Part shown: in pieces, positions 1 through 59,997 of the stretch
Layout of the letters: every line of letters starts with the position of its first letter
How positions within the stretch are numbered: position 1 is the first letter of the stretch
NCBI RefSeq assembly: GCF_900205865.1
Contig: NZ_LT906662.1
Location: forward strand, 1,623,411-1,687,410
DNA: 64,000 bases
Direction of reading: 5' to 3'
From: Thermoanaerobacterium sp. RBIITD
GTDB taxonomy: Bacteria > Bacillota > Thermoanaerobacteria > Thermoanaerobacterales > Thermoanaerobacteraceae
Notes under the pieces: generated by a model
What the model saw: only the letters and a program-made list of their open reading frames with translations
Told to the model about the DNA's origin: nothing
Databases searched by the model: none
Program-made: the position numbers and the translations under genes

Positions 1-496
1 TCCTACAAAACTAGTTATAAATATAAGCAGAACAGGTATGACAGGGTATGAGATAATGAGGCTTTTAAGAACCGAATATCATGTTCAATTGGAAATGGCT
101 GATTTAAGCAATATTATGGCTATTATAAGCCTTGGTGATGATATAGAGGCTATTGACTATTTGGTAAAATCTTTAAATGAGCTTTTACAAGAAAAGGAAG
201 GTACTAATGAAATAATAACGGGAAGTATAGTAAGGCCTGAAGTAATTGTAGCACCACGGGATGCCTACTATGGCAGAAATAGGTCTGTTCCATTAGACAT
301 GGCAGCTGGTGAAATAAGTGCGGAGATGATAATGGCATATCCACCTGGTATACCTATGGTATGTCCAGGTGAAAAGATAACAAAAGACCTCATCGATAGA
401 GTTAAAATGCTTAAAGAACAACATTGCCAACTACAAGGAACAGAAGACCCCAATATAGACCATATAAAAGTTTTAGGACATATGTATAAAGTTTAA
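1..496 (+). CDS. Orn/Lys/Arg decarboxylase family protein, C-terminal part (gene starts upstream of the window)
   Basis: The 152-aa reading frame 38..496 resembles the C-terminal domain of PLP-dependent Orn/Lys/Arg decarboxylases (YNGRNRSVPLDMAAGEISAEMIMAYPPGIP). The ORF is open to the window edge. Confidence 0.55.
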   Translation, partial: PTKLVINISRTGMTGYEIMRLLRTEYHVQLEMADLSNIMAIISLGDDIEAIDYLVKSLNELLQEKEGTNEIITGSIVRPEVIVAPRDAYYGRNRSVPLDMAAGEISAEMIMAYPPGIPMVCPGEKITKDLIDRVKMLKEQHCQLQGTEDPNIDHIKVLGHMYKV

Positions 497-45500: not shown

Positions 45501-45777
45501 CGGCACAGGTCTTAATTTAACAGGAGCAGATACGGTAATACATTTTGACCCATGGTGGAATCCTGCCGTTGAAGACCAGGCAACAGATAGAGCGCATAGG
45601 ATAGGCCAAATAAATACAGTACAAGTAATAAAACTTATTACACAAGGTACTATTGAAGAAAAAATTATAAAATTGCAGGAGAAAAAGAAAGAGATAATAA
45701 ATTCGGTTATAAATCCAGGAGAAACATTTATAACTAGATTGAGTGAAGAAGAAGTAAAAGAGCTTTTTGCTATGTAA
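42574..45777 (+). CDS. SNF2-family helicase with N-terminal SWIM zinc finger
   Basis: SWIM zinc finger (CTCPAKMKYKGDCKHIVAVL). SNF2 motifs LADDMGLGKT, ILDEAQYIKN and LTGTPIEN, plus a helicase C-terminal motif (HFDPWWNPAVEDQATDRAHRIGQ). Confidence 0.85.
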   Translation: MFDISESEIKKRCFDTFTYKRGLEYYVSGRIHDLSLNKDGTAFQAIVTGTKEYYVRVQQYNGELFTSCTCPAKMKYKGDCKHIVAVLTYIKNHRDDIIDFLESGISNELFEAFEEREYIPESVKQPVNIEITLECGLTSLPAISLRMGIDKLYVVKSIKKFFEDTDNGEVVEFGKNFSFDPRINTFKDEDKKFIQFLREIYEIDKFNTEGSYYRIDPILTGKYVRLTPSNLEKFFEIVKDGHFNVSIGDKTYYDVKVVDGDLPIKFKLEKGNNGKGINVNVEGIENLSALSEKGNFFMYDGVIYKISSRQRYSLVPFYNLYVNNRVNKITFKEKDKFRFASTILPEIDKAGSVVIDENIKSSFYKEPLVTKIYLDKEYEKVTADINFTYGIYNINLYNPDKTNITKDCILIRDEAGEKSVLEIFERAEFKIKDNRVYIDNEEAIYNFIVNLLPALQKRAEVYYSESFKAIKLYKRSYSGRIRLRDDNLLEFSFSIDDIDQDLIPKIFDSIRRKKKFFRLPDGSFLPIEDDDLRDIVNLADELDLNDKDLKKNIINIPKYKALYLDERLKKDKVQIERDLKFRELVKNIKEPQETTYEIPKELRGTLRNYQVVGFKWLKTLASYGLGGILADDMGLGKTIQTIAFLLSEREKYKEPAIVICPTTLVYNWESEINKFAPSLKTTVISGNKSERNYLRKNIKESDIVITSYPLIRRDIDDYDNIKFSYCILDEAQYIKNPNSQNAESVKRIKAKGYFALTGTPIENSLTELWSIFDFLMPGYLLSHRKFVEKYEKPIIKENNKEKLVDLNRHIKPFVLRRLKKDVLKELPQKIETTSVAELTKEQKELYMAYLENAKGEIAEEIRNKGFERSQIKIISALTRLRQICCHPSMFIENYKGDSGKMELLMELLNELKDGGHRVLLFSQFTTALKLIEEKLKKEKISYLYLDGQTKSEDRGALVKAFNEGKANVFLISLKAGGTGLNLTGADTVIHFDPWWNPAVEDQATDRAHRIGQINTVQVIKLITQGTIEEKIIKLQEKKKEIINSVINPGETFITRLSEEEVKELFAM

Positions 45778-45842
45778 TAAAATAGATATTTAAAATTGAT
45801 TTTACACAAAGATGATTCAGTAAATTAATAAGCTATTTAAAA

Positions 45843-45875
45843 GCAATTGTCTATTAAAACAATTGCTTTTTTTTG
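45843..45875 (+). terminator. rho-independent terminator after the helicase gene
   Basis: GCAATTGT...ACAATTGC followed by TTTTTTTT. Confidence 0.6.
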
Positions 45876-45892
45876 TAAAAAATTTCTCTGCT

Positions 45893-46157
45893 GATTATGT
45901 TACAAGTTTGTAATAAAAAATTAAGGAATTGTTAATAAATTTTATAAATTTTAATTTTATAATAAAAGGTAAGATATGGGAGGCAAGAATATAAAATGAA
46001 GCATAATATGCGGAAGTGATAAAAATTATTTTTATATTGCGGAATATTTTTAGAATAATTTAGCTTTTATATATATAGAAGGGGAAACAAAAGACGGAGG
46101 TGAAGAAAAAGATTATTCAATGTTCCCAAAAACATATGAGGGAGGGAGATATCTTTT
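45893..46157 (+). repeat. leader module copy A (part 1 joined to part 2; sigma cassette absent; uORF start degenerate)
   Basis: Shares TTATGTTACAAGTTTGTAATAAAAAATTAAGGAAT...GGGAGGCAAGAATATAAAATGAAGCATAATATGCGGAAGTGATAAAAAT...GGAATATTTTTAGAATAATTTAGCTTTTATATA with the other copies. Confidence 0.7.
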
Positions 46158-46838
46158 ATGAAATATCAAAAAAAATTAACAGCAGTATTACTTATAACCA
46201 TATTTTTACTGAGTGTAGTGATTACGGGCTTTACTTCAATATCGAAAGCAAGCACAAAAGAATCACTTGGTGTGAGTGATGCAACAAATTTTGATGATCC
46301 TATTACAGTAATTTCAGGCATGGTTCAGGCGATTAATGAACAGGATCCTTATGAGTATATGACCTATTTTACCAATTCTAATCGCACAGCTATGACACAG
46401 TTTCTTTCAAGTAATAAATCAGAGTCATTCTTTAAAGAGAAGCAAGCAAAGTTGATTCAAATTAAGGAGCTCCCAAAGGACATAGATATAGAAGCAGCAG
46501 GCATATCATCTGGAGAAAACTTAAATTTGGATGATACACGTATTTATTATGCTGAAATTAACTTTAAAGTGGATAAAGAAGATAAATGGCTATATAATGG
46601 TACAAACTATCGTGTTATTGTTGTTACAAAAGAAGATGGAAACTGGAAAATAGTCAGGCTATCAGTTCCATCTATAGAATACTTAAAAGATACTGGCAAT
46701 GGATTTAATTCAAAGGATGAAAATATTGCTGTTAAAATTGAAAGTACTCTTGAGAGAAAAGGACAAGTAATGAATATGAAGGGTGCAGTTATTGATAATA
46801 TTGCTGCAACAGAAGAACAGTTAAAAAATGAAAAATAG
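46158..46838 (+). CDS. lipoprotein; truncated paralog of 58729..59997
   Basis: Signal peptide/lipobox-like N-terminus. It is about 85% identical to the first 225 aa of the 58729 gene and is followed after the stop by a remnant of that gene's C-terminal domain at 46846-46925. Confidence 0.5.
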   Translation: MKYQKKLTAVLLITIFLLSVVITGFTSISKASTKESLGVSDATNFDDPITVISGMVQAINEQDPYEYMTYFTNSNRTAMTQFLSSNKSESFFKEKQAKLIQIKELPKDIDIEAAGISSGENLNLDDTRIYYAEINFKVDKEDKWLYNGTNYRVIVVTKEDGNWKIVRLSVPSIEYLKDTGNGFNSKDENIAVKIESTLERKGQVMNMKGAVIDNIAATEEQLKNEK

Positions 46839-47193
46839 TCCTAGCAAAAACAGCAGTTCAAGCTGGAGCTATAGCTGTAAAAATGTATGGCTGGTACCAT
46901 GTGAATCATCCAAAATGGAACTTTCGTATAATTAGGGGATTATTTGAATGGTATCTGTTGTAAAAATATCAGAAGTAGTAGCCTCTTACAGTTAATATTC
47001 CTAAATTATTATGACATTTCTAAAATGTAAAAAGATAACATTTAATAAAAAATTTATTATTATATAAATTTTAACAGTTATTACATAAATAAAAAAGAAG
47101 GTGATATATTAAAAACCTACTTTAAATTACATGATATTTTATTTAAATTGGAGGAAAAGGAAAATAATTAATTCAAATAAGGAGAGATCTGAA

Positions 47194-47427
47194 ATGAAAA
47201 GAATTTTAGTTACTATTATAATGTGCACTATTTTGGTTTTTTCATCAACTGTTGGCTTTGCAAATGTTGGTGATAATAAACTGAATAGTGTTTCTGCAAT
47301 TGTGAATAAAAATGATGCGAAAAAGATTGCAGCAAATCATGTCATTAGAGAAAAGCATAATGCTGAATTTAAAGACTGGATTAATGGCGAAGTAGACGAT
47401 GGAACAGAATTAGTCGATTTTAAATAA
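47194..47427 (+). CDS. small exported PepSY-like protein fragment (probably part of a disrupted gene)
   Basis: Signal peptide (MKRILVTIIMCTILVFSSTVGFA) and a PepSY-like segment. The reading continues in another frame to about 47570. Confidence 0.3.
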   Translation: MKRILVTIIMCTILVFSSTVGFANVGDNKLNSVSAIVNKNDAKKIAANHVIREKHNAEFKDWINGEVDDGTELVDFK

Positions 47428-47813
47428 TAATGTTATTGCTTATCTTTTTAATGTATATGACAAGACTGCATTATTAGGCTATATTATAGTAAGTGCTAAT
47501 AAAAATATGCCGCCTATTTTAGAATATTCCCGAGCTAGTTCTATAGTATTGGCTTATCCAAGATAAAACAAAATCTTCAAAGAAATGAAACACTTAAAAA
47601 AGCGACTTATGTATATTTTTTCCCTAATACATATATGATAAAATTTATTATAAATAGAAACAATTATGATCAAGAGGAAGAATTATTTGATATTAGAAAT
47701 TATAAAAAAATTATTTATAAAGACATAAATCAAAGTACAATAAATTCCTCAGATATTAACTCTTAGATGTTAATAATGTAAAAACATGGAACAAATTATT
47801 TGATTTTAATCCA

Positions 47814-48341
47814 ATGAATAGTGGAACAATAACTACGAAGAAAATAAGTGGTGTTCCAGATTTGACTTGGTATAAAGGCTGTGCTCCTACATCAGCAGCT
47901 AACTTGATTTATTATTGGGATGCTCATGGATATCCTAACCTTGTTATTAATGAAACTACTAATCAAGTAATAGAAAAATTGGCAATGAATATGGGAACAG
48001 ATAGTAATGGTTCTACTAATGTTTTATTTATTATGTCTGGTACTATTCAATATATAAAATCAAAAGGATATACAAATTTTGATGGTTATGATTTAAATCC
48101 TCCTAGCTATTATGATATAAGGAATGAAATAAATAATTCAAGACCCCTATTATTATCGGTAATAGGACATCCAACTTATGAAAATCATACAATGGCATGT
48201 GTTGGATATGAATACGTAACAGAACTTGGAGAAATAACAGAAGAATATGTAATAGTACATGATACATGGAGTGAAACTCCTACAGATGTGTATATTGCAT
48301 TTGATGGGACTTTCAAATATGCACATATATTTATTCCATAA
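47814..48341 (+). CDS. C39-like papain-fold peptidase domain protein (possibly the 3' part of a disrupted gene)
   Basis: Catalytic-type Cys (WYKGCAPTSAANLIYYW) and His (VIVHDTW). No signal peptide is present on this ORF. Confidence 0.45.
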   Translation: MNSGTITTKKISGVPDLTWYKGCAPTSAANLIYYWDAHGYPNLVINETTNQVIEKLAMNMGTDSNGSTNVLFIMSGTIQYIKSKGYTNFDGYDLNPPSYYDIRNEINNSRPLLLSVIGHPTYENHTMACVGYEYVTELGEITEEYVIVHDTWSETPTDVYIAFDGTFKYAHIFIP

Positions 48342-48354
48342 AAAGGTGATATTT

Positions 48355-48690
48355 ATGATATCAAAAAAATGGATAATGACCATGCTACTTATTTTGGCTC
48401 TCACAGGATGTTCAAATCTAAAAAAACAAGGAGATGTGGTAGGTGGAATATCTGATAATGAAGCTTTGAAGGTAGCTAAAGAAAAAGCGGAAATTACTAA
48501 AGTAAAATCAGAAGAGCTTAAAAATTTAGAAGTTGATCTCGACAAATTTTTTGATGATCCAAAACTTATGGAAAAATCTCCTTGCCCCGTTTACTGGATA
48601 ATAAAAGGTGTTGATAAAGAAGGGAAATCCTTAACTGTATATGTAAATTATAAAAAACCCAGCATTTATTATATTAAAAATGAAAGATAG
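48355..48690 (+). CDS. small lipoprotein
   Basis: Lipobox LILALTGCSN and an RBS (AAAGGTGA). It is about 95% identical to the product of 58106..58441. Confidence 0.55.
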   Translation: MISKKWIMTMLLILALTGCSNLKKQGDVVGGISDNEALKVAKEKAEITKVKSEELKNLEVDLDKFFDDPKLMEKSPCPVYWIIKGVDKEGKSLTVYVNYKKPSIYYIKNER

Positions 48691-48707
48691 TCTAATTGTT
48701 GAATTTG

Positions 48708-48733
48708 TCATGGCATTTGCCATGCTTTTTTTA
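48708..48733 (+). terminator. rho-independent terminator
   Basis: CATGGCATTTGCCATG followed by TTTTTTT; the same element occurs at 58458-58483. Confidence 0.6.
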
Positions 48734-48826
48734 TGTTACAAGATTGTAATAGAAAATTAAGGAATAATTAATAAAATTTATAATTTTTAATTTTATAATA
48801 GAGGTGAGGTATGGGAGGTTAAGAGT
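48731..48826 (+). repeat. leader module copy B, part 1
   Basis: TTATGTTACAAGATTGTAATAGAAAATTAAGGAATAATTAATAAAATTTATAATTTTTAATTTTATAATAGAGGTGAGGTATGGGAGGTTAAGAG, immediately before the ATG of 48827. Confidence 0.7.
48737..48750. promoter_or_regulatory. palindrome TTACAAGATTGTAA, putative operator
   Basis: Also present at 45899-45912 (as TTACAAGTTTGTAA), 52951-52964 and 58487-58500. Confidence 0.4.
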
Positions 48827-49228
48827 ATGGGAGAGAGCGATGTAGAATTTGCATTTATTAAGTTTATTGAAAAATCTATTAATTATGAAGCAGTAAAAGC
48901 CATAAAAAAATATAATGACATTAAAAAGAAAGAACTTTTAACATTAGAGTTACCAGATTACAATGGCAATATTGAAAATGATGGGAAAATTATTGACAGT
49001 ACGGTATACGATAATGTGTTAATTGAAAATGAAATAATAGATAGATTAATGATTTCAAAATGCAAGGAACTGTTGGAAGCGGAAGAATTTAATGTTGTAA
49101 TGCTAAATATAATGCAAGATATACCACAAAAAGAGGTAGCTAAAATGTTAAATAAATCACAATCATCCATAAGCAAGATTAAGAAAAAAGCCCTTAAGAA
49201 AATAAGAAAGTTTATGGAGGGTTCTTGA
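48827..49228 (+). CDS. ECF-type sigma-70 C-terminal fragment (regions 2.3/2.4 to 4.2)
   Basis: EFAFIKFIEKSINYEAVKAIKKYNDIKKKEL aligns to region 2.3-2.4 (compare SigW FSTWLYRIATNLTIDRIRKKK). The C-terminal VVMLNIMQDIPQKEVAKMLNKSQSSISKIKKKALKKIRK is a region 4.2 HTH. Confidence 0.6.
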   Translation: MGESDVEFAFIKFIEKSINYEAVKAIKKYNDIKKKELLTLELPDYNGNIENDGKIIDSTVYDNVLIENEIIDRLMISKCKELLEAEEFNVVMLNIMQDIPQKEVAKMLNKSQSSISKIKKKALKKIRKFMEGS

Positions 49229-49232
49229 AAGT

Positions 49233-49433
49233 ATGTGTAAAAATAAAAGCCTTTTTGAAATTATTTTAAAGGCTAAAGAAGGTGATAAAGATGCTATGCA
49301 AGAGATAATATTGCGATTTCAGCCTCTTATAAAGAAAAACATGAGAAATGTTGATATGGACATAAAAGATGATATAAGTCAGGATATTGTTGAGGTAATA
49401 ATAAAAGCAATCAAAAAATTTGATATAAAATGA
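49233..49433 (+). CDS. ECF-type sigma-70 N-terminal fragment (regions 2.1-2.2 only)
   Basis: LKAKEGDKDAMQEIILRFQPLI...DDISQDIVEVIIKAIKKFDIK aligns to the SigW-type regions 2.1-2.2 (QVKKGDQDAFADIV...AEDIAQEAFIRAYVNIDSFDIN). It has its own RBS (GGAGGG, 10 nt), and its start lies 4 nt after the previous stop. Confidence 0.6.
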   Translation: MCKNKSLFEIILKAKEGDKDAMQEIILRFQPLIKKNMRNVDMDIKDDISQDIVEVIIKAIKKFDIK

Positions 49434-49589
49434 AGCATAACATTCGGAGATGATAAAAATAATTTTTATGATGTGGAATATTTTTAGAAAAAGTTAGCTT
49501 TTATATAAGTAGAAGGAGAAATACGGAAAATGGAGGTGAAAAAAGATTATGAAATATTCCCCTTAAATATGAGGGAGGATTGGATTTAA
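49434..49589 (+). repeat. leader module copy B, part 2
   Basis: CATAACATTCGGAGATGATAAAAATAATTTTTATGATGTGGAATATTTTTAGAAAAAGTTAGCTTTTATATAAGTAGAAGGAGAAATACGGAAAATGGAGGTGAAAAAAGATTATGAAATATTCCCC... Confidence 0.7.
49530..49589 (+). CDS. conserved leader uORF (MEVKKDYEIFPLNMREDWI); its stop abuts the ATG of 49590
   Basis: An RBS (AAGGAGAAA) lies upstream. Equivalent uORFs occur at 54934..54978 and 58670..58732. Confidence 0.35.
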   Translation: MEVKKDYEIFPLNMREDWI

Positions 49590-50327
49590 ATGAAAAGGTT
49601 AGTATCGCTCATTTTATGCTTATCTTTAGCTTTATCTGTGACAATCGCTTATGCAGATCTTTCTACTAATGAACAATCAATAGGTGAAGTATCAGCTGAG
49701 TCAAAAAAACTTTCTGATCAAAAAATAGTTGAAACGGCAAAGCGGTTAGAAGTGTTAAACAAAAAAGTTTCTAATGGACAAGTAAATCCTATGAGTGATC
49801 CACAAATACCACCAAGCAAAATATTAAGTACTTCCGGATATATTGCACAACCTGATAATAGTACATGTGGACCTACTTCTGCTCATAATCTGCTCTTAAG
49901 CTGGGGTAAAAATATATCTATAGATACACTGAAGAAAGATTTGGGATATAATGGTCAAACTCCTTTTGGAGATGCATGGAAAACGACGCTTAATAATTAT
50001 ACAAATTCAACTTATTATGTAGTTACTTGGAGCCCTAGTCAGACAACAATTTGGAATGCTTTCGTTGGGGACACAATTGATGGACACCCATTTATATTAG
50101 ATACACATATGTCGTCTGAAAATGGTTATCTTGAAGGTTATTCTGGATCAACATGGTGGCATTATGTAACAGGAATTGGATATAGTGGCTATAATTTAAA
50201 TTCAGACAATAGTAAATATGGAATATACTTTGATCCGTATGATGGACGTGTGGGTACTTTTGGCCAGCATTCTTTGGAACTGCCCAAATGGGTAAAATTA
50301 GTATCAGAAAGAGGAATAGTTTGGTGA
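49590..50327 (+). CDS. exported C39-like papain-fold cysteine peptidase
   Basis: Signal peptide (LILCLSLALSVTIAYA), a catalytic-type Cys (DNSTCGPTSAHNLL) and a His (WWHYVTGIGY). Confidence 0.6.
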   Translation: MKRLVSLILCLSLALSVTIAYADLSTNEQSIGEVSAESKKLSDQKIVETAKRLEVLNKKVSNGQVNPMSDPQIPPSKILSTSGYIAQPDNSTCGPTSAHNLLLSWGKNISIDTLKKDLGYNGQTPFGDAWKTTLNNYTNSTYYVVTWSPSQTTIWNAFVGDTIDGHPFILDTHMSSENGYLEGYSGSTWWHYVTGIGYSGYNLNSDNSKYGIYFDPYDGRVGTFGQHSLELPKWVKLVSERGIVW

Positions 50328-50408
50328 TTTCATGGTATTCCTTAAGTGTTTTACTTAAGGAATACCATAATCTATATAGATAAAAGTCACTTTGTCTGGG
50401 AGGCTATT

Positions 50409-51488
50409 ATGAATAAAGTGAAACTATGTTTATTAATCATCGTAATCTTAATAATTGGTGGCTGTAGTATTAATAGTACAAGTACAGACTTAAGCAATGA
50501 GAATATAATTATTGATAAAACAAATGGTAATATACTTGATGAGTTAGAAGCTAAAAAAACCTCATCGATTGAAAATGCACATCCAATAGCTGTGCTTGAT
50601 GATGGCAGAAAAGTGTTTTTGCAGGTTAATCCTGAAGTAGACAACAGTATTTTTGTCACTTCAATCGATGGCTCAATAGTGCTTAAAATTAATGCTGAAA
50701 TTTCTAAAAATATTTATGATGCAAAAGTCATGGGGAATTGGATCGTGTATGTTGAATCCAGCAACGATATGACAAAAAGCGATTGGGCTTTGTATGCCAA
50801 AAATATAGATGACAATCGTCGCATAGAAATTGATAAGGGAAATGTTGTAAATGCAAAAGTAAAAACGCCTACTTTGTTAGGAGCGTTGATATCTGCATCT
50901 AACGACAAAATTGTTTGGACAGCTTTTGAAAAAGATGAGAAATCTGTTAATGCAATTGTCAAATTATACGATATTGAAAACAATACTTATAAAATCGTTG
51001 ATAAATTAAATGTTGAAGACGGAGAATTTGGGCAGCCAGGGTTGGATGGGGATTGGCTTGTATATGATATTGGAAAAATCGATATGAAAGCACTGGCGAG
51101 AAATGGGAAATTGGTCCTTGTAAATCTTAAGAATAACGAGAAAAGAATATTAGATGAAGGATTAAGAGTTAGCGGTGCATCAATTAAATATCCATATGTA
51201 GTATGGAATTCAGGCGATTCTATTCTAAAATTATACAATATAAAGACAAAAGAAGAAAAAACTATTGTAAATTGGGGTATGACAGGCGTTTGGAATAGCT
51301 CACTTAATGATAAGTTTATTTCATGGAATACAAACGGTGATGGTTTATACATTTACTCTATAGAAAGAGGAGAGATATTGAAGTTAAAAGATTCAGGTAT
51401 TACAAGCGGTGGTAATATTTCAGGCAATATACTGTGGTGGTACGTCAAAGGAGAAAAGTGCAAATCAGAGTGGATTACTTTAGATTGA
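50409..51488 (+). CDS. lipoprotein with beta-propeller-like repeats
   Basis: Lipobox IIGGCSI, with repeated W/Y-rich strands (WIVYVES, KIVWTAF, WLVYDIG, YVVWNSGD). An RBS (GGGAGG) lies before MNKVKL. Confidence 0.5.
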   Translation: MNKVKLCLLIIVILIIGGCSINSTSTDLSNENIIIDKTNGNILDELEAKKTSSIENAHPIAVLDDGRKVFLQVNPEVDNSIFVTSIDGSIVLKINAEISKNIYDAKVMGNWIVYVESSNDMTKSDWALYAKNIDDNRRIEIDKGNVVNAKVKTPTLLGALISASNDKIVWTAFEKDEKSVNAIVKLYDIENNTYKIVDKLNVEDGEFGQPGLDGDWLVYDIGKIDMKALARNGKLVLVNLKNNEKRILDEGLRVSGASIKYPYVVWNSGDSILKLYNIKTKEEKTIVNWGMTGVWNSSLNDKFISWNTNGDGLYIYSIERGEILKLKDSGITSGGNISGNILWWYVKGEKCKSEWITLD

Positions 51489-51501
51489 ATGAAATTACTG
51501 A

Positions 51502-51912
51502 ATGCTTTTTAATCATATTGGAGTGAGATTTATGATAAAAATTACTAGTACATGTAAATATATACCTTATAAAATTATGTTTGCGCTTTTTATAATTGTA
51601 ATGCTATTGTCACATCTATCAAATATAGCATCAGCAAATGAAAGTTTTGTTATTTTAGACATCAGCAAAGGAAGTATTGTCATAACTTCTACAGGTTATT
51701 CACAAAATAGCAGCAAAGAAATTCCATATACTATACGAGAATACAGTGGACTTCCGGAGTAGGACACGCTATGGTTATTAAAGGTTATGATACCAGCACG
51801 AATTATGTTATTTATAACGATCCTTGGGATGGATACGGGCATGGCGCAACTTACTCATATTATGTAAGTAACAGTAGCTGGTACTGGACAGATTCTCTAT
51901 TTTGGGAATAGT
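51502..51912 (+). pseudogene. C39-like peptidase remnant (frameshifted)
   Basis: An 86-aa ORF with a signal-like N-terminus is followed, in a different frame, by GHAMVIKGYDTSTNYVIYNDPWDGYGHGATYSYY. This is the conserved C-terminal His region of C39-like peptidases. Confidence 0.4.
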
Positions 51913-51934
51913 ATGAATGAGGAGGTGAATTATT

Positions 51935-52798
51935 TTGAAAAAGGTTCTTACTTTTGTTGTGATTGCTATATTGATATTAATATCAACTTTTCCGGCTTTT
52001 GCAGCTACTCCAATAAATACTCTGGTTCAACAACAATTAGATCTAGCTAAAGAAAAAGATCAGGTAGAACGTGCAATTAGCGATAGCCAGTCAAATCCTA
52101 AAAAATTTTTATTCGATAACAAACATGAGCTGGGACGTAAAGAGTTAATGGATGTAAGTAATCCTGACGATTTAATATACGGGAAAGCATATAAAGTGTA
52201 TATTGCTAATAAAGAAGTTATTCAAGATCTAATAGAAGGGAAAAATATTTCTAATGTTCTGTTAAATGCACCTTATGAGTGGGAAGTGCCTGTAAAATTT
52301 AATAATAAAAGTGTAGCGTCAATTACCGTATCTTTTTTGGACAATAGATGGAATGTTGGTGAAATTGGCGGCTATCTTTCGCCTAATTCTATTGATTTTG
52401 TAAGCAATCCTGATGATATAACTTCATATCTTGATAACAATAATTTAAAAGAAGCAAAAACATTTATTCATTTCAGAATACCTTCGTTGCATTCCGATTT
52501 TCTTTATATTGAAGCAAATAGTGGAGAATATTTTATCCCTGTTATTCACGGCGAAGGTAAAAGTGAGCTTTATGGTCTTAAAGACAAAAAAATATATACA
52601 AAAGACGAGATAATTTCCGCTGTTGGTCATACTCTTAAAGCTGGTTTGAAAGATACGGGAATGACAACAGGCCGCCCGTCGGTTAATGGGAAATATCTTG
52701 GCAATCAAGTATACTATTTAATTGTATTGACAATTTTTATTGCCTTTATAACAATTTTTCACTTTATTAGATTGAAACGAAAATACAGTTATAAGTAA
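51935..52798 (+). CDS. exported protein with C-terminal membrane anchor (hypothetical)
   Basis: Signal peptide (VIAILILISTFPAFAATP) and a C-terminal TM helix followed by a basic tail (LKRKYSYK). It has a TTG start with an RBS (GAGGAGGTG). Confidence 0.5.
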   Translation: MKKVLTFVVIAILILISTFPAFAATPINTLVQQQLDLAKEKDQVERAISDSQSNPKKFLFDNKHELGRKELMDVSNPDDLIYGKAYKVYIANKEVIQDLIEGKNISNVLLNAPYEWEVPVKFNNKSVASITVSFLDNRWNVGEIGGYLSPNSIDFVSNPDDITSYLDNNNLKEAKTFIHFRIPSLHSDFLYIEANSGEYFIPVIHGEGKSELYGLKDKKIYTKDEIISAVGHTLKAGLKDTGMTTGRPSVNGKYLGNQVYYLIVLTIFIAFITIFHFIRLKRKYSYK

Positions 52799-52944
52799 AT
52801 AAGCGAATCTAAGGTGGAATATTAAAATTCTATGTTAGACACCCATCAAAAATAGTTGGTGTCTTTTATTTTTTATTTTGCATAGGCAATCAGGATGTAA
52901 GTGTTTATCTGATAAGTTAAGGGACCAATAAAATTTTTCTGCCA

Positions 52945-53000
52945 ATTATGTTACAAGATTGTAATAAAAAATTAAGGAATAATTAATAAAATTTATGATT
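52945..53000 (+). repeat. leader module copy C, part 1, interrupted by an IS
   Basis: ATTATGTTACAAGATTGTAATAAAAAATTAAGGAATAATTAATAAAATTTATGATT, then the IS begins. Confidence 0.65.
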
Positions 53001-54782
53001 TGATTCAAGTGTCATAAGAAGCATTTTTTTAAGCTGCTAATGATAACTTTGCTTGATTTTTACCTGATTTTGTAAGAATAAATTTGATTTTGATATTTTT
53101 ATACAAAGTTGCAGCCATCTCCGCTGCCATTTTCAGTATTTTTTTTGCATTTATGGCTCCTATTTTGAATGAAAACCAGATTTTTGAGCGCACTAATCCC
53201 CTTACAGGTATCACATCTACATAATATTTGCGCCTTAGTATTGATGGAATACCCTCCACTCCATTTCTTATCTTTTGAAGTACACTGTATTCTTCTGTTG
53301 ACATCTTTTTCAAATAGCTTGCTCTTTGTATTGTTTTTGCTGTTATCAGTACATATGCCGATTTCTTTTGTAGCTTCGCTCCACATTTTTCTCTTAGTGG
53401 ACAATGTTCACATGTTTTTTTATTGAAGGATGCTCTATATAATCCTGTTTTTTCATAGTATCTTGTTTTGTATGGTTTTTCTCCTCTTGGGCATTTGATT
53501 ATTTCATGGGTCGTTTCATCTAATTCAAATTCGCTTTGTATTTCATCTGGCAATTTCCCTATAAGAGCTGTTGTTATTAGTTCGATATTGTTTTTATCTG
53601 CAAGTTCTATGTTTTCAATGCTGCTGTAAGCTCCATCTGCTATTATTGTTATTTCTTTTTCTTGTTTCCCTAGCTTTTCTATTGTTTCTTTGCAAAAGCT
53701 GCTATCGCTGTGTGTGTTTACATCATAGTCATAGCTGGTTATTATGGAGCCTTTTTCGTCTATTGTTTCTACTATGTTAGCTACATAGCCTTTATGGTCT
53801 TTTCCTGCTTTTTTGCGATATGTTGCATCTGGGTCGCTTGGGTTTTGAAGACTATCAGGGCTTATTTTTTCTTTTTCTACTGGTACTATCTTGCCTTCTT
53901 CTGTTATTTCTGTTTGTTCTTTTAGTACACGCTGTAATAGCTGATATTCTGGTAATTCAGCGTATGCTTCTCCTAATTCTTTTATTAGTGTATAGGCATC
54001 TTCAATTATTTCTTGAAGTCTTTTTGTTATTTCTTCGTTTTTTCTATGATAGATTGTTTTGTTTCTGTCGTCTTCATCTAGGTAGTGTTCCATGTTTTTG
54101 AGGTGTTGATATTCTCCTGTTTTGTATACTGCCTTGACCATATTTGCTACGCATGTGTATAGTATTTCTAATCTGGACATTTTTTTGCAACTGGATGATA
54201 CCATAATGCTGTCCATTCTTTTTACTGATGGATTTATATTAAAGTATTTTACAAATACGTTTGCCATGGCTTCCATTTCTTCATGAAGAAGGTCTCTTCC
54301 TGTTTCTAGATTGTAAAGATATAGCCTTTCACGAAAACGGCTAAAAGTCCTATCACTGAAAGGTTGACTTTTGAAGCTTGTAGTGTGAAGGGCGTATTGG
54401 AAACGGACATCACATAGGATGCTTGCTAATAGTTCGTCATCTGTGAGATTAAACATTTCTTTTAGTATTAGGGCTCCAATTATTGCGTTTACAGGACTGT
54501 TTGGACGAGAAGCGGGATTGTCACTGTACAATACGGAAAAGCGTTTCTCATTGATTGCTGGAAATATGATTTCAGCAAAGCCTTTTGCCCATGAATTTAA
54601 AACAAACGTTTTTGTTCTTTCATCCAAGTTTAAGAATCTATCATCAATTGTGATTTGTTGATATTCGTTTGGTTTGAATGCCATGGCTATGTATCGCTCC
54701 TTCTATTTCCTTTTGTTTGTATTTCTATTTTACCATATTTTTAGTTTATCATGAAGGAAAAATACTTTTGACACCTTAATCA
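53001..54782 (-). mobile_element. IS1182-family (IS5/IS1182) insertion sequence, about 1.78 kb, with imperfect terminal inverted repeats of about 25 bp and a TGATT direct-repeat flank
   Basis: Left end TGATTCAAGTGTCATAAGAAGCATTTTT and the reverse complement of the right end, TGATTAAGGTGTCAAAAGTATTTTT. TGATT is present at 52996-53000 and at 54783-54787. Confidence 0.7.
53029..54684 (-). CDS. IS1182-family transposase
   Basis: 551 aa with the N-terminal conserved region NPASRPNSPVNAIIGALILKEMFNLTDDEL. A DDE region and a C-terminal Cys-rich segment (CPRGEK...CEHCPLREKC) follow. Confidence 0.85.
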   Translation of the reverse strand: MAFKPNEYQQITIDDRFLNLDERTKTFVLNSWAKGFAEIIFPAINEKRFSVLYSDNPASRPNSPVNAIIGALILKEMFNLTDDELLASILCDVRFQYALHTTSFKSQPFSDRTFSRFRERLYLYNLETGRDLLHEEMEAMANVFVKYFNINPSVKRMDSIMVSSSCKKMSRLEILYTCVANMVKAVYKTGEYQHLKNMEHYLDEDDRNKTIYHRKNEEITKRLQEIIEDAYTLIKELGEAYAELPEYQLLQRVLKEQTEITEEGKIVPVEKEKISPDSLQNPSDPDATYRKKAGKDHKGYVANIVETIDEKGSIITSYDYDVNTHSDSSFCKETIEKLGKQEKEITIIADGAYSSIENIELADKNNIELITTALIGKLPDEIQSEFELDETTHEIIKCPRGEKPYKTRYYEKTGLYRASFNKKTCEHCPLREKCGAKLQKKSAYVLITAKTIQRASYLKKMSTEEYSVLQKIRNGVEGIPSILRRKYYVDVIPVRGLVRSKIWFSFKIGAINAKKILKMAAEMAATLYKNIKIKFILTKSGKNQAKLSLAA

Positions 54783-54995
54783 TGATTTTTAATTTTATAA
54801 TATTAGGTGAGGCAGGTATGTATAAAGTATAAAATGAAGCATAACATTCGTAAATGATAAAAATAATTTTTATGATGTGGAATATTTTTAGAAAAAATTA
54901 GCTTTTATATAAGTAGAAGGGGAAATACGGAAAATGGAGGTGAGGAAAGAGATTATGAAATATTCCCCTAAAATATGAGAGAGGGAAATAAGATT
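54783..54995 (+). repeat. leader module copy C, part 2 (resumes after the IS)
   Basis: ATGATTTTTAATTTTATAATATTAGGTGAGGCAGGTATGTATAAAGTATAAAATGAAGCATAACATTCGTAAATGATAAAAAT... The uORF MEVRKEIMKYSPKI lies at 54934..54978. Confidence 0.65.
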
Positions 54996-56096
54996 ATGAA
55001 AAAGATTTTCTCAATTTTTATTTTAATGATACTCTTTATATGTGGGGCAGTTATTAATGTAAATGCATACACAAATAACGAAAATATGAACAGTAAAGAA
55101 ATCACTAATATAATTACAGAAGCATATCAATATAGGACAAAATCAATAGTTGATCCGTCTTATATAGATAAATTGGAGTTGTTTTATGCAAAATATACAA
55201 AAATTTATAATTTCGAAAAGAATAGATATAAAAATTATATTGAGATGGCAGATAGACTGAATATAAAAATATTAAACATTAAATCCAATGTAGAAATTAG
55301 TAATATTAAGTTAAAAAACAATGATGAATGTCAAGTTGATTTAAAAGAGATTATAAGTTTTGACTGGATAAATTCAAATGATGATCCAATTAATTCTAAG
55401 ACTAACAAATCTGATATGGGTATTGATCATAAAGTTACATTAATTAAGAAAGATAATGAATGGAAAATACAAAAAGATGAATATACTGAAGGATATTTAA
55501 CAAATGTTACTTCTCCGGATTTTGATGTTTCACAATTAAAATCACTGAGTGTACCTGAAATAACGCATGATAATGTAGTTCCATATTCACCACCAGGATC
55601 AACTCCTTATAATAGAAATGCAGCTGCTAACTATGCAGAAAATTATTGTTTGAAATATAATCCTAGTTATAAAAGCTATGATTCAGTTGGTGGTGACTGT
55701 GCAAATTTTGTTTCTCAGTGCTTATATGCTGGTGGGGCCTATTATATTGGATTTGGGATTAATAGTAGTACAAACTGGTGGTATGATAATAAAAATACTT
55801 CTTTAACTACAGATGATGTTGCATCTACTACATGGACATATTGTCCTTCTCAAAGACCTTTTATACTATCAGGGTGGGGTAGTGAAACAACTTCATCAAG
55901 TTTATCAAGAGGAGACATTATATATTATGATTGGGCTGGAGATGGTATATGGGATCACGTTGCTATAGTAACAGGCTTTGATAGTTCTGGCGCTCCCCTT
56001 GTTAGCTGTCATACTACCGATTATCACAATATAAAATGGAATTATGGTGGAAGTTCTTGCAAATATAGTTGCATACACATTAATAATTATATTTAA
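54996..56096 (+). CDS. exported Amidase_6-like putative cell-wall hydrolase
   Basis: Signal peptide (IFILMILFICGAVINVNA). The C-terminal domain has Cys (GGDCANFVSQCLYAGG) and His (GIWDHVAIVTGFD) residues typical of the putative-amidase (PF12671-like) family. Confidence 0.55.
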   Translation: MKKIFSIFILMILFICGAVINVNAYTNNENMNSKEITNIITEAYQYRTKSIVDPSYIDKLELFYAKYTKIYNFEKNRYKNYIEMADRLNIKILNIKSNVEISNIKLKNNDECQVDLKEIISFDWINSNDDPINSKTNKSDMGIDHKVTLIKKDNEWKIQKDEYTEGYLTNVTSPDFDVSQLKSLSVPEITHDNVVPYSPPGSTPYNRNAAANYAENYCLKYNPSYKSYDSVGGDCANFVSQCLYAGGAYYIGFGINSSTNWWYDNKNTSLTTDDVASTTWTYCPSQRPFILSGWGSETTSSSLSRGDIIYYDWAGDGIWDHVAIVTGFDSSGAPLVSCHTTDYHNIKWNYGGSSCKYSCIHINNYI

Positions 56097-56200
56097 TATG
56101 TTAATGTGTTGCATTGATTTTAACCCTTATAAATATAAGGCAATTTTTATGTACTCTTATATTTAAAATTGAATTCAAATTGTAAATTTATATCTGATTT

Positions 56201-56245
56201 CTGCATACTCTAAATAACATAGTAAAGAGTATGCAGTGTTTTTTA
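56201..56245 (+). terminator. rho-independent terminator
   Basis: CTGCATACTCT...AGAGTATGCAG followed by TGTTTTTT. Confidence 0.6.
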
Positions 56246-56272
56246 AACAATTTTCAATGGAGGTGATCGGTA

Positions 56273-56833
56273 GTGGTATTATTTAAAAAAATTGTTTTGT
56301 GTTTTTTGATATTTTTTGCCTTTATTGTGGTCGGATGTTCGGTTCCAAATAACAACATTGCCATTAAAGAAAAGGGAAATAATTCAATAGCACAGAAGTA
56401 TTTCAATATGCTGACGAAGGAAGATATAATTAGAATTTCAAAGGCGTCTCCGGAAGAAATAATAAACATCTATTATAATAGCATAAATGATAAAAATTAT
56501 AATCTCGCCGTTGTTTGTGCTTCCAATTTTTTAAATAATGCAGCAAATAAATCATCTGAAGATATTAGTTATGTGTATAATGAACATATAGAGTATTTGA
56601 AAAATATAAAAAGTATTGATATCAAATCAATAGAAATATATCCAGATACGATAAAAAAGAATGACAGCGAAAATATAGAAAAACCTTCTAAGCTTTACTG
56701 TGTTTATTATATGCAAAAATCGAATGATATTAACAAATTTCCTGAAGAGGGGTACTTCACCAGATTTATTGCAGTTTCTAAGTCACCTTTATATGGTGGT
56801 TGGTGTATAAGTTATATTGCTTCATCACCATAA
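56273..56833 (+). CDS. lipoprotein (hypothetical)
   Basis: Lipobox FIVVGCSV with a GTG start after an RBS (GGAGGTGA). Confidence 0.5.
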   Translation: MVLFKKIVLCFLIFFAFIVVGCSVPNNNIAIKEKGNNSIAQKYFNMLTKEDIIRISKASPEEIINIYYNSINDKNYNLAVVCASNFLNNAANKSSEDISYVYNEHIEYLKNIKSIDIKSIEIYPDTIKKNDSENIEKPSKLYCVYYMQKSNDINKFPEEGYFTRFIAVSKSPLYGGWCISYIASSP

Positions 56834-56872
56834 ATTTTTTTTAAGAAAAGCTATATAGGGGAGGTAGATAAT

Positions 56873-57979
56873 GTGATTAAATCGTTTAAAACTTTATTAG
56901 CTGTTGTATTTTTATTACTTATGTCTGTTGTATTCTCTGGCTGTTCTGACACAGTGAAAAATAATACTGAAGTGCCATTTGTTGTCTTAAATAATGATGA
57001 TGGAAACTTTAAGGCAGATATATATTACTGGAATATAAAAACTAATAAAATAAAAGAAACAAATGAAAATTTATATAAGATTCCACAAAATATAATAACA
57101 AATAAAGAATTATATACGATATTCCCTATGGCTTGGGATGAACAGAATCATGCAGTTTTGCCTTCTTATTTAGAAGTATCAGATAAATTCAAAAACTTTG
57201 TTAAAAAAGCGGATTTTTATTTTCAACCAAAGACGATATGGGGGCAAGACGTAAAGTTGGTAAAAAGCGATGAAGAAAATAGATATAAGTTAACATTAAT
57301 AGATGGCGGTAAGACTGAGGAGAAAGAAATAACAATTCCTCTTCATACTTTTAAAGGTGAAGATGGTAAAGGGTATGAAGCAACAAAATGCGGAACAGTA
57401 ACATCGGTAGTTAAGACAAGTTATGGTGCAGCAATGCTCTATCCTTGCTTCACATTAGGTGGCGGAAAATTATTCATTGTAAAGTATGATAACGCATCAG
57501 AAAGTATCAAATGGCAAGAAGTTGGACCTATTAAAGGTATAGAGTTATCACCTAGCTTTCCGCCATTGGCTAATCATACAGCTACTATCGGAGATAATTT
57601 TATCATAAGAACGCAGACTAATCCTATAGAAGTGTATACCGAAAAAGTAGGTTATAAGATTATAAATAACATATATGATCTTCGGAAGAAATACGCACCT
57701 GAAACATTAAATAGTGAATTTCCTGAATATATAGATATTTTAGGAAGCTATAATGATATTTTGTTTTTAAGTATACCAGTGCATAAAAATGAAGGGACAG
57801 AATTGTATATATTTGCTGTGAAGGATGATAAACTTATAGGGATTATGCACAGAACGATAAATGATATTGAAATAATTGATGCGGCAGGAAATGTTGCATC
57901 AAAATATAATATGCCTAAAGCGAAAACTTTAATTGGCGAAAATGATGTCTATTTTCCAAATGTGAACGGCATGGATTGA
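56873..57979 (+). CDS. lipoprotein (hypothetical)
   Basis: Lipobox VVFSGCSD with an RBS (GGGGAGG). Confidence 0.5.
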   Translation: MIKSFKTLLAVVFLLLMSVVFSGCSDTVKNNTEVPFVVLNNDDGNFKADIYYWNIKTNKIKETNENLYKIPQNIITNKELYTIFPMAWDEQNHAVLPSYLEVSDKFKNFVKKADFYFQPKTIWGQDVKLVKSDEENRYKLTLIDGGKTEEKEITIPLHTFKGEDGKGYEATKCGTVTSVVKTSYGAAMLYPCFTLGGGKLFIVKYDNASESIKWQEVGPIKGIELSPSFPPLANHTATIGDNFIIRTQTNPIEVYTEKVGYKIINNIYDLRKKYAPETLNSEFPEYIDILGSYNDILFLSIPVHKNEGTELYIFAVKDDKLIGIMHRTINDIEIIDAAGNVASKYNMPKAKTLIGENDVYFPNVNGMD

Positions 57980-58105
57980 TTAATAGATTAAATGTTGAAG
58001 ACGGAGAATTCGGACAGCCAGGGTTGGATGGGGATTGGATTGTATATGATATTGGGAATACTTTCATATACACACATATATTTATTCCATAAAAAGGTGA
58101 TATTT

Positions 58106-58441
58106 ATGATATCAAAAAAATGGATAATGACAATGCTACTTATTTTGGCTCTCGCAGGATGTTCAAATCTAGAAAAACAAGGAGATGTGGTTGGTGGAAT
58201 ATCTGATAATGAAGCTTTGAAAGTGGCTAAAGAAAAAGCAAAAATTACTAAAGTAGAATCAAAAGAGCTTAAAAATTTAGAAGTTGATCTGGACAAATTT
58301 TTTGATGATCCAAAACTTATGGGAAAATCTCCTTGCCCCGTTTATTGGATAATAAAAGGTGTTGATAAAGAAGGGAAATCCTTAACTGTATATGTGAATT
58401 ATAAAAAATCCAGCATTTATTATGTTAAAAATGAAAGATAG
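58106..58441 (+). CDS. small lipoprotein, paralog of 48355..48690
   Basis: Lipobox LILALAGCSN. The whole 58020-58570 block duplicates 48290-48830. Confidence 0.55.
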   Translation: MISKKWIMTMLLILALAGCSNLEKQGDVVGGISDNEALKVAKEKAKITKVESKELKNLEVDLDKFFDDPKLMGKSPCPVYWIIKGVDKEGKSLTVYVNYKKSSIYYVKNER

Positions 58442-58457
58442 TCTAATTGTTGAATTT

Positions 58458-58483
58458 GTCATGGCATTTGCCATGCTTTTTTT
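58458..58483 (+). terminator. rho-independent terminator (duplicate of 48708-48733)
   Basis: CATGGCATTTGCCATG followed by TTTTTTT. Confidence 0.6.
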
Positions 58484-58728
58484 ATGTTACAAGATTGTAA
58501 TAGAAAATTAAGGAATAATTAATAAAATTTATAATTTTTAATTTTATAATAGAGGTGAGGTATGGGAGGTTAAGAGCATAATATGCAAAATGATAAAAAT
58601 AATTTTTATGATGTGGAATATTTTTAGAATAATTTAGCTTTTATATAAGTAGAAGGGGCAATACAGAAGATGGAGGTGAAAAAAGATTATGAAATATTCC
58701 CCAAAAATATTAAGGAGGGAGATCTTTT
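58484..58728 (+). repeat. leader module copy D (part 1 joined to part 2, no sigma cassette)
   Basis: Part 1 is identical to copy B up to GGGAGGTTAAGAG and is then joined directly to CATAATATGCAAAATGATAAAAAT... The uORF MEVKKDYEIFPKNIKEGDLL lies at 58670..58732 and overlaps the ATG of 58729. Confidence 0.7.
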
Positions 58729-59997
58729 ATGAAACATCTAATAAGATTAACAGCAGTACTGCTTATAACAACATTTTTAATAGGTATAGTGATTACAGGA
58801 TTTACTTCAATACCGAAAGCAAGCGCAAAAGAATCGGTTAGTCTGAGCAATATAACAAATTTTGATGACCCTATTGCAGTAATTAAAGGGATGATTCAAG
58901 CAATTAACGATCAGGATCCTTATGAGTATATGAACTATTTTACCGATTCTAATCGCACAGCCATGACACAATTTCTTTCAACTAATAAGTCAGAATCATT
59001 CTTTAAAGAGAAAGAGGCTAAGTTGATTCAAATTAAAGAGCTTCCAAAGGAAGTAGGTGTAGTAGCTGCAGGTATTTCATCTGGAGAAAACTTAAATTTG
59101 GATGATACACGTGTTTTTTATGCCGAAATTAACTTTAAAGTGGATAGAGAAGATAAATGGCTATATAATGGTACAAACCATCGTGTTATTGTTGTCACAA
59201 AAGAAGATGGAAGCTGGAAAATAGTAAGGCTATCAGTCCCATCTATAGAATACTTAAAAGATACTGGCAATGGATTTAATTCAGATGACGAAAATATTGC
59301 TGCTAAAATCGAAAGTACTCTTGATAAAAAAGGACAAATAATGAATATGAAAGGTGCGGTTATTGATAATATTGCTGCAAGTGAAAAACAGCTAAAAGAT
59401 GAGAAATTAAATCCTAGAGCTATTGAACCTGAAATAGGCATAGATAGCACAGCAGTTGATGAACATACGAGGCCTTCTAATATCAGGGTTTACATGACAA
59501 ACTCAGTAAATATAAATCATTATGGTTCCGGAACTCACCTTGTTGATTTTGGAGATTATGTGTATAATGTACTGCCAAATGAATGGGGCGACTGGTACAA
59601 TACGGCTAAAACAGCAGTTCAAGCAGGAGCTATAGCTGTAAAAATGTATGGTTGGTACCATGTGTATCATCCAAAATGGAATTTTAGCCCTTACTATGCT
59701 GACGTACAAGATAATATAAATGACCAAGTATATAAATACAATTCAGCGACAACTAATTTTAATAGTGCAGTTAATGATGTTGGAGGGATTGGTGTCGATA
59801 TACTCAGTGGATCGGCTTATGTTCTATTTGAAGTGCATTACGTAGCAGGAACTGAAGGACCAGGCGGGCAATATAGTGGTACGATGTGGCAATATGGAAC
59901 GTTATATTGGGCAAAACAAGGTAAAGGCTATACTTACATGTGCCATTATTATTGGGACAGATCGTCAACTCAGCCAATACATTTCTTTTACTATTAG
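58729..59997 (+). CDS. lipoprotein with C-terminal SpoIID/LytB-like domain (tentative)
   Basis: Lipobox/signal ITGFTSIPKASA. The C-terminal VLPNEWGDWYNTAKTAVQAGAIAVKMYGWY resembles the SpoIID ...ALKAQAVAARTYA region. Confidence 0.45.
   Translation: MKHLIRLTAVLLITTFLIGIVITGFTSIPKASAKESVSLSNITNFDDPIAVIKGMIQAINDQDPYEYMNYFTDSNRTAMTQFLSTNKSESFFKEKEAKLIQIKELPKEVGVVAAGISSGENLNLDDTRVFYAEINFKVDREDKWLYNGTNHRVIVVTKEDGSWKIVRLSVPSIEYLKDTGNGFNSDDENIAAKIESTLDKKGQIMNMKGAVIDNIAASEKQLKDEKLNPRAIEPEIGIDSTAVDEHTRPSNIRVYMTNSVNINHYGSGTHLVDFGDYVYNVLPNEWGDWYNTAKTAVQAGAIAVKMYGWYHVYHPKWNFSPYYADVQDNINDQVYKYNSATTNFNSAVNDVGGIGVDILSGSAYVLFEVHYVAGTEGPGGQYSGTMWQYGTLYWAKQGKGYTYMCHYYWDRSSTQPIHFFYY

Follow-up and report, generated by a model that had tools for sequence, protein, structure and literature searches.

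Why should a repeat of about 250 bp stand before several unrelated genes for exported proteins in one chromosomal neighbourhood of Thermoanaerobacterium sp. RBIITD, and what could control it? The question arises from a 64,000-nucleotide stretch of contig NZ_LT906662.1 (positions 1,623,411 to 1,687,410; hereafter the window), in which a sequence-only reading had described five copies of a bipartite leader module, possibly under the control of a sigma factor encoded within one of them. The answer favoured here, with a probability of roughly 0.55, is that the repeat is the shared predicted promoter and leader of the operons of an approximately 16-kb horizontally exchanged Thermoanaerobacterium island, with a split sigma factor as its most likely activator. 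The coordinates of the features are collected in Table 1.

The module was recovered by repeat search as four-copy direct-repeat families (D1, D4, D5 and D6), and a BLAST self-comparison of 45-62 kb bore out the repeat where it had been reported, with an overall range of 81-96% identity among the copies. There are four copies in the window and not five, because the palindrome TTACAAGWTTGTAA and the cores of the two module parts, P1 (TTAAGGAATWRTTAATAAA) and P2 (GYGGAATATTTTTAGAA), were each found exactly four times with zero mismatches and in modules only; exact scans with these cores and the palindrome found no fifth copy in the window. Identity was 96.2% for 48309-48828 against 58060-58579, 94.3% for 49424-49578 against 54828-54984, 89.7% for 49434-49578 against 58575-58718 and 86.3% over the roughly 950 bp holding copies 1 and 4 with their genes (45895-46844 against 58482-59417). 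The earlier figure of at least 85% is slightly too high for copy 1, which gave 82.4% with copy 2 (45989-46145 against 49423-49578) and 80.6% with copy 3 (45949-46151 against 54787-54990). The terminator hairpin described 5′ of each copy is present, being detected by scan for copies 1, 2 and 4 and by eye for copy 3.

Compilation of 18 P1 and 23 P2 copies across genomes revealed two units in the module that can occur apart. P1 (about 95 bp) carries in order a TTACAA-NN-TTGTAA palindrome, a GGAATA box, two TATAAT boxes and GGGAGG, the ribosome binding site (RBS) of the first sigma gene. The palindrome arms TTACAA/TTGTAA are invariant in the 18 P1 copies, and the central two bases are GA, GT or AT. 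P2 (about 105 bp to the GGAGGTGA RBS) consists of an AT-rich palindrome, a GGAATA box, a TTTTATATA box and the GGAGGTGA RBS, and its consensus after the palindrome reads GGAATATTTTTAGA, a short variable stretch, TTAGCTTTTATATA, two variable bases and TAGAAGGGG before the RBS. The AT-rich near-palindrome (ATGATAAAAATAATTTTTATGAT, 49450-49472 in copy 2) sits just 5′ of the GGAATA box, in the same place in other P2 copies, and has a one-base-shorter variant in other genomes (AAAATTAATTTT); both length variants are palindromic, and the element could be an operator or an UP-like element. All the motifs named in the sequence-only reading (palindrome, TATAAT hexamers, both GGAAT motifs, the GGGAGG RBS and a second RBS) were found again, with the exception of the short upstream open reading frame (uORF) as a module part. 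Together with the second RBS the uORF makes up an optional P2 extension of about 45 bp; copy 1 has another version of it, and many copies in other genomes lack it or carry a changed one. It is missing from 8 of the 23 P2 copies, in which the cargo start codon follows directly 3′ of GGAGGTGA, and its start codon in T. butyriciformans (L013) is ATT. The uORF therefore does not define the module, and on these observations together with its varying length and frame a functional uORF was rejected.

Each unit is also found singly, directly 5′ of genes. P2 follows a preceding stop codon without an intact P1, whose 5′ half is gone, at L001:12678 (strain CMT5567-10), L002:14102 (PSU-2) and L003:12425 (a metagenome contig), and P1 occurs without P2 at L003:8275 and at L012:3542, where homology stops 4 nt past the second TATAAT. 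P2 as an ancient duplicate of P1 was considered and rejected on a local alignment score no better than that of shuffles. In total, 25 P2 copies precede seven unrelated first-gene families in 13 Thermoanaerobacterium sequences, which strengthens the earlier view of a portable regulatory cassette before diverse exported-protein genes.

The bipartite state of two copies in the window has two separate causes, since in copy 2 a pair of sigma-related genes lies between the parts and in copy 3 an insertion sequence (IS). The interval 53002-54781 is an IS with a DDE transposase, as documented by the transposase open reading frame (ORF) at 53029-54684 on the minus strand (551 amino acids, aa; domains DUF772, DDE_Tnp_1_6 and DDE_Tnp_1), by 12-bp inverted ends complementary at 10 of 12 positions and by the duplication of a 7-bp target, ATGATTT (52995-53001 and 54782-54788). 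Excision in silico of the IS with one ATGATTT duplicate gives an intact module sequence. The insertion point is the first TATAAT box of P1, and the IS probably inactivates P1 of copy 3 and leaves P2 intact.

The two genes within copy 2, only 4 nt apart, are predicted to encode a single sigma-70-family factor that is split inside sigma-2 and permuted in gene order, the C-terminal part coming first. The 133-aa product matches Pfam Sigma70_r4 (PF04545) at 34.2 bits against a gathering threshold of 24.1, and the 66-aa product matches HTH_16 (PF12645) at 56.8 bits against a threshold of 22. With the sigma-70 family model TIGR02937 (165 positions, curated cutoff 42.9 bits) neither protein reached the cutoff alone, the 133-aa protein scoring 42.3 bits over positions 51-164, just under it. 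An in-silico fusion with the 66-aa protein first exceeded it with 54.2 bits in one contiguous match over positions 1-164, and the fusion also aligned end-to-end with the SigH, SigE, SigK and SigY models. The best NCBIfam match of the 66-aa protein alone was RsoA (NF041489; 24.7 bits, E = 1.7e-5) against an equivalog cutoff of 100 bits, a score that suggests distant similarity only and not an RsoA equivalog. Its next NCBIfam matches were the first approximately 70 positions of the SigH, SigY, SigI and SigF models, and its PDB sequence matches were the N-termini of SigI6 and SigF. The profile of the 133-aa family matched region 3.2-4 of FliA, SigB and SigF structures.

A single-sequence AF2 (AlphaFold2) model of the artificial fusion had a predicted local distance difference test score (pLDDT) of 67-86 over residues 1-100 and was poor beyond. 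Its best Foldseek PDB matches were all sigma factors, with sigma-E region 2 aligned over 96-109 columns at a template modelling (TM) score of 0.63-0.72. Because it is residues 1-100 of the fusion that match sigma-E region 2, sigma-2 would be built from both proteins, namely the 66-aa protein and the N-terminal stretch (roughly 35 residues) of the 133-aa protein. The 66-aa protein would accordingly be read as regions 2.1-2.2, the N-terminal part of sigma-2, and the 133-aa protein, judged from its profile matches, as a region 2.4-like helix, a region 3.2-like linker and a region 4 helix-turn-helix (HTH). Domain matches and fusion model together place the fold of sigma-2 and that of sigma-4 on two polypeptides of adjacent genes, as defines a split sigma factor. 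The two small "HTH" and "sigma-like" ORFs would then be one sigma factor, which calls for caution in annotation.

The 133-aa protein matched a Thermoanaerobacterium sp. RBIITD protein at 100% identity. Its family is small, with only 66 representatives at E <= 0.001 in an exhaustive HMMER search, and the distant relatives (Pelotomaculum, Paenibacillus, Ignavigranum) show 22-45% identity and lie in unrelated, often mobile-element contexts. In the Paenibacillus locus (L025, conjugative-element context) the order is reversed: the gene of an HTH_16 protein (81 aa) precedes that of the sigma-4 protein (142 aa), their stop and start codons overlap, and the two parts thus stand unpermuted, as in an intact sigma. 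At a distance of 4 kb there are another HTH_16 gene and one of the YvrJ family.

The island is bordered by an SNF2-helicase gene on one side and by a LiaF-like gene and argC on the other, and related islands with 3-4 module copies each occupy the same site in CMT5567-10, PSU-2 and the metagenome contig (L001-L003). When one genome per species was scanned with the P2 core, genuine matches were confined to Thermoanaerobacterium (T. saccharolyticum, T. thermosulfurigenes, T. butyriciformans and a metagenome-assembled genome), other matches being attributable to chance. A phage origin was rejected, since two viral-contig matches to the P2 core lay in coding sequence and were chance, and PHROG matches concerned only generic sigma and endolysin families. 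The sigma pair is present in every named genome with the module, and P1 lies directly 5′ of the sigma genes in all sigma-bearing islands.

Gene-by-gene nucleotide comparison of the window with L001-L003 gave 72% identity for SNF2 (46-48% at third codon positions) and 80% for argC (58%), as against 93-97% for the sigma genes (90-95%), 90-94% for the LiaF-like gene and 92-98% for all cassettes. Because the island at 45800-61850 is 92-98% identical to islands of other Thermoanaerobacterium species (L001-L004 and L013), with third positions at 90-95% in the sigma genes, and the flanking SNF2 and argC genes only 70-82% (third positions 46-58%), these sequences indicate that it was recently exchanged horizontally between species at a fixed chromosomal site. 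Conservation of the module across species was discarded as a sign of selection, the synonymous sites of the island genes being equally conserved, as follows from recent transfer.

Each genome has its cassettes in a different order and the module at their junctions, one of which shows the microhomology GGAG(G)TGAG. The joints at which P1 meets P2 without sigma genes occur in at least three forms, and several retain the last codons and stop of the 66-aa gene (...ATATAAAATGAAGCATAA); for both reasons repeated deletion is favoured over one insertion. In the window the sigma genes of copy 1 are deleted with the last codons of the second sigma gene retained (ATATAAAATGA), and in copy 4 the deletion joint runs from TTAAGAG into CATAATATGC. 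Two metagenome contigs (L030 and L032) hold minimal islands of SNF2, one module, one lipoprotein operon, the LiaF-like gene and argC. In draft genomes the module was met on very short contigs (L006, L008, L015 and L020; 2.3-4.1 kb); the repeats evidently interrupt assemblies, and the island content of draft genomes is likely under-reported.

Taken as a mechanism, P1 would be the promoter and RBS of the two-gene sigma operon and P2 the promoter and leader of a cargo operon, and copy 2 (P1, sigma genes, P2, cargo) would represent the ancestral layout. Copies 1, 3 and 4 would be duplicates that lost the sigma genes by deletion, copy 3 having later been struck by the IS. Recombination between module copies, with microhomology joins at the edges, would bring the module before unrelated cargo and shuffle the cassettes. 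We infer that the split sigma activates its own promoter P1 as well as the P2 promoters, so that one switch would turn on all the secreted hydrolase and lipoprotein operons together, and the invariant P1 palindrome arms would offer a possible site for a further dimeric regulator. Control of the cargo by the split sigma is a plausible prediction. The candidate shared target, GGAATA-N18-TTTTAW, is in both P1 and P2, and its 6 matches in the window against 0.63 expected lie in modules only.

Several points weigh against this interpretation. GGAATA-N18-TTTTAW was found post hoc, and 10.6% of shuffled P1/P2 pairs share some in-register 6-mer and 5-mer (2.9% if the 6-mer has at least two G/C), so that the GGAAT motif common to P1 and P2 is statistically weak; the local alignment of P1 with P2 was no better than 329 of 500 shuffles. 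The motif is absent at the loci of the distant sigma relatives, and phylogenetic footprinting with these relatives was given up for that reason, their low identity and their unrelated contexts. The near-identity resulting from recent transfer makes conservation uninformative on which bases matter. The minimal islands, with genes intact in L030 and broken in L032, each contain a single module, and neither island includes the sigma genes. Finally, the model of the split sigma, made from a single sequence for an artificial fusion, is of moderate confidence, and its Foldseek E-values are weak (1e-3 to 0.1).

Some of these points fit a possible, though on balance improbable, alternative in which the modules are housekeeping sigma-A promoters under an unlinked dimeric regulator bound at TTACAA-NN-TTGTAA, and the split sigma has other targets or none. 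The candidate promoters would be TTGTAA-17-ATTAAT or TTAAGG-16-TATAAT in P1 and, in P2, the AT-rich UP-like element with TATATA. The perfect TATAAT hexamers of P1, the operator-like pattern of invariant palindrome arms around two variable central bases (GA, GT, AT), the sigma-less islands L030 and L032 and the weak statistics of the shared motif all agree with it. However, no module has a match of at least 10/12 to the sigma-A consensus TTGACA-16..18-TATAAT, the perfect TATAAT boxes lack a good -35, the best sigma-A-type matches inside modules reach 9/12 (46031 and 48750), and the scan of the window is at chance level (96 found against 94.7 expected). Apart from the sigma pair, no gene for a palindrome-binding regulator was found in or next to the island, which leaves the pair as the only regulator there, and module and pair co-occur in all named genomes. 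A more far-reaching version of split-sigma control, in which the pair is the single switch of an exchanged, cassette-shuffling arsenal of secreted cell-wall hydrolases, each followed by lipoproteins in a bacteriolysin/immunity-like arrangement, with the module as both common target and the homology through which cassettes are duplicated, deleted and swapped inside a species and across species, is put forward tentatively and is itself doubtful.

The repeats would have no regulatory meaning if they were passive by-products of segmental duplication of neighbouring genes with their upstream regions. Such duplication accounts for the pattern of copies 1 and 4, which match together with their genes over 950 bp at 86%, and of copies 2 and 4, where P1 and the upstream gene match over 520 bp at 96%. 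It is nevertheless unlikely as the whole explanation, as the homology of copies 2 and 3 ends at the module edges, the module lies at the junctions of differently ordered cassettes and the same module stands before seven unrelated gene families, a spread that pure passive duplication does not account for.

Less likely still is that P2 acts as a cis-acting RNA leader governing cargo-gene translation or termination, that is a riboswitch, attenuator or uORF-coupled switch, for example through pairing of TTCCCC with GGGGAA or an RBS. It is true that GGGGAAATA is complementary to TATTCCCC, that copy 1 has an apparently compensating ACA/TGT change and that CCCU is able to pair with AGGG of the second RBS. 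Against this, a search of 44000-61000 gave no relevant Rfam 15 match up to E = 1 (only a chance snoRNA match), RNAalifold with 14 distinct extended leaders yielded no common fold at either 37 or 60 °C, the leader stops at GGAGGTGA in 8 of 23 copies, which have neither the 3′ partner nor the uORF, and the uORF itself varies in length and frame and starts with ATT in L013. The GGGGAAATA/TATTCCCC pairing was rejected, its 5′ arm being equally conserved in copies without the 3′ arm. That the module is the recombination site of an integron-like cassette system, as cassettes separated by direct repeats, strain-dependent cassette order and a palindrome within the module might suggest, is hardly credible for an island with no integrase or recombinase gene and a single mobile-element gene, the IS transposase inside copy 3, and with junctions that vary in position around microhomology and have no fixed crossover point.

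The cargo operons that the split sigma is predicted to control typically open with a Sec-secreted enzyme-like protein (Peptidase_C39_2, Amidase_6/CHAP or DUF4829-SpoIID-like), and the lipoproteins are encoded further down each operon. The sequence-only reading was thus right that the products are exported, but its lipoprotein label does not fit the module-proximal proteins, which have Sec-type signal peptides without a lipobox cysteine. Its description of the downstream genes as non-homologous is right only in part, since copy 1 and copy 4 precede a paralogous pair (82% aa identity over 226 aa). A search for solved structures of the cargo proteins gave nothing useful. The copy 1 gene has left a remnant of its lost SpoIID-like part at 46844-46924, and its operon (46158-48341) is decayed: a C39-like gene encoding 382 aa in L001 (13809-14957, 98% DNA identity) is split in the window into two ORFs, one of 98 aa (47131-47427) and one of 175 aa (47814-48341). 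Another gene remnant is the orphan C-terminal C39/C70-like peptidase fragment (...GHAMVIKGYDTSTNYVIYNDPWDG...) at 51763-51911, between an 86-aa ORF and the 287-aa gene. The gene of the 186-aa lipoprotein (56273) retains the ATGGAGGTGATCGGTAGTG RBS (GGAGGTGA) and start of a module; a terminator hairpin (56203-56245) takes the place of the module in the window, and the module heads this gene in L002, L003, L012 and L030. No module motif was found 5′ of the LiaF-like gene on the minus strand.

Table 1. Positions in the window of the module copies, the genes they contain or precede and the neighbouring features
Feature	Position	Strand	Evidence or content
Intrinsic terminator of the SNF2-helicase gene, just 5′ of copy 1	45839-45870	+	Scan; 12-pair stem, then T run
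Copy 1, P1 fused to P2	45895-46157	+	Repeat search, self-BLAST
Copy 1 P1	45895-45992	+	Palindrome 45900-45913, GGAAT 45925-45929
Copy 1 P2	45993-46157	+	GGAATA 46041-46046
Copy 1 cargo, DUF4829 gene	46158-46838	+	226 aa, shortened paralogue of 58729-59997; repeat families D3 and D7, self-BLAST
Terminator 5′ of copy 2	48709-48724	+	Scan
Copy 2 P1	48731-48826	+	Palindrome TTACAAGATTGTAA 48736-48749, GGAATA 48761-48766
Copy 2 P1 TATAAT boxes	48779-48784, 48794-48799	+	Followed by GGGAGG RBS of first sigma gene
First sigma gene	48827-49228	+	133 aa; Sigma70_r4
Second sigma gene	49233-49433	+	66 aa; HTH_16
Copy 2 P2	49434-49589	+	AT-rich palindrome 49450-49472, GGAATA 49475-49480, TTTTATATA 49499-49507, GGAGGTGA 49534-49541
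Copy 2 P2 optional extension	within 49434-49589	+	uORF ATGAAATATTCCCCTTAA, second RBS GAGGGAGG
Copy 2 cargo operon	49590-52798	+	Secreted Peptidase_C39_2 protein (49590-50327), 380-aa lipoprotein, small ORF, C39-like fragment, 287-aa exported protein
Terminator-like hairpin AGACACC...GGTGTCT with T run, about 70 nt 5′ of copy 3	52837-52875	+	By eye; not in scan list
Copy 3, 5′ half of P1, interrupted by IS	52946-53001	+	Palindrome 52951-52964, GGAAT 52976-52980
IS element, 1780 bp	53002-54781	-	Ends GATTCAAGTGTC / GACACCTTAATC
Copy 3, rest of P1 and complete P2	54782-54995	+	GGAATA 54879-54884
Copy 3 cargo operon	54996-58441	+	Secreted Amidase_6/CHAP hydrolase, then three lipoproteins (186, 368 and 149 aa)
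Terminator 5′ of copy 4	58460-58475	+	Scan
Copy 4, P1 joined to P2	58482-58728	+	P1 palindrome 58487-58500, P1 GGAATA 58512-58517, P2 GGAATA 58615-58620
Copy 4 cargo operon	58729-61131	+	DUF4829 and SpoIID-like exported protein (422 aa, 58729-59997), BNR/Sortilin-like lipoprotein (356 aa)
LiaF-like membrane protein gene	61174-61674	-	Part of exchanged block
Whole island, SNF2-helicase gene to argC	45800-61850		LiaF-like gene included

The locus offers a natural system in which a predicted split sigma lies beside up to four candidate target promoters per genome, and natural variants with P1 alone, P2 alone or an IS-disrupted copy make promoter specificity and self-activation directly testable. 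It also illustrates how a promoter cassette spreads before unrelated genes, and how a block of secreted hydrolase and lipoprotein operons moves between species that share only 70-80% identity in their core genes. Among the papers searched, none describes the island.

Among known systems, very few split sigma factors have been studied, SigO-RsoA being cited as the characterised one, and split-domain sigmas were named as an open area in the reclassification of extracytoplasmic function (ECF) sigma factors (PMC7826278). In B. subtilis SigO and RsoA must cooperate for transcription from PoxdC (PMC10028694). As cited in two sources (PMC10028694, PMC7826278), SigO-RsoA resembles the island pair in being encoded by two adjacent genes, that of the sigma-4-bearing protein first and that of a small sigma-2-like protein second; the need for both proteins at the target promoter and a small local regulon are likenesses predicted for the island pair. 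The RsoA model is the best NCBIfam match of the 66-aa protein, although at 24.7 bits against a cutoff of 100. The larger island protein has 133 aa, whereas SigO is given as 22.5 kDa, and the candidate targets are secreted hydrolase and lipoprotein operons where that of SigO-RsoA is oxalate decarboxylase; the candidate target promoters in the island are moreover multi-copy cassettes within an exchanged block.

Orf7/Orf8 of Tn916 is by description a similar pair, in which a small HTH protein comes after a Sigma70_r4 protein (PMC5812530, PMC12229494), and for which self-activation at the promoter Porf7, with transcription continuing into the downstream genes, is reported (PMC5812530). Distant relatives of the 133-aa protein do occur in conjugative-element contexts next to HTH_16 genes, as in the Paenibacillus locus, but genes for integrase, excisionase and conjugation (int, xis, tra) are all missing from the island. 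TcdR, UviA, BotR and TetR are locus-specific, self-activating sigma factors that switch on secreted toxins or bacteriocins of their own variable loci; they are single-chain proteins with different promoter elements, whereas the island cargo is only putatively toxic. With integron-type arrays the island shares a conserved repeat between exchangeable cassettes and a strain-dependent order, but its repeat lies 5′ of each cassette and carries predicted promoters, an integrase is lacking and the joints are variable, with microhomology. Promoter duplication and split sigma factors are each already known, and what appears to be undescribed is their combination, a split sigma within one copy of a multi-copy two-unit cassette, with natural deletion derivatives, in a shuffling island of secreted-hydrolase and lipoprotein cassettes exchanged between species.

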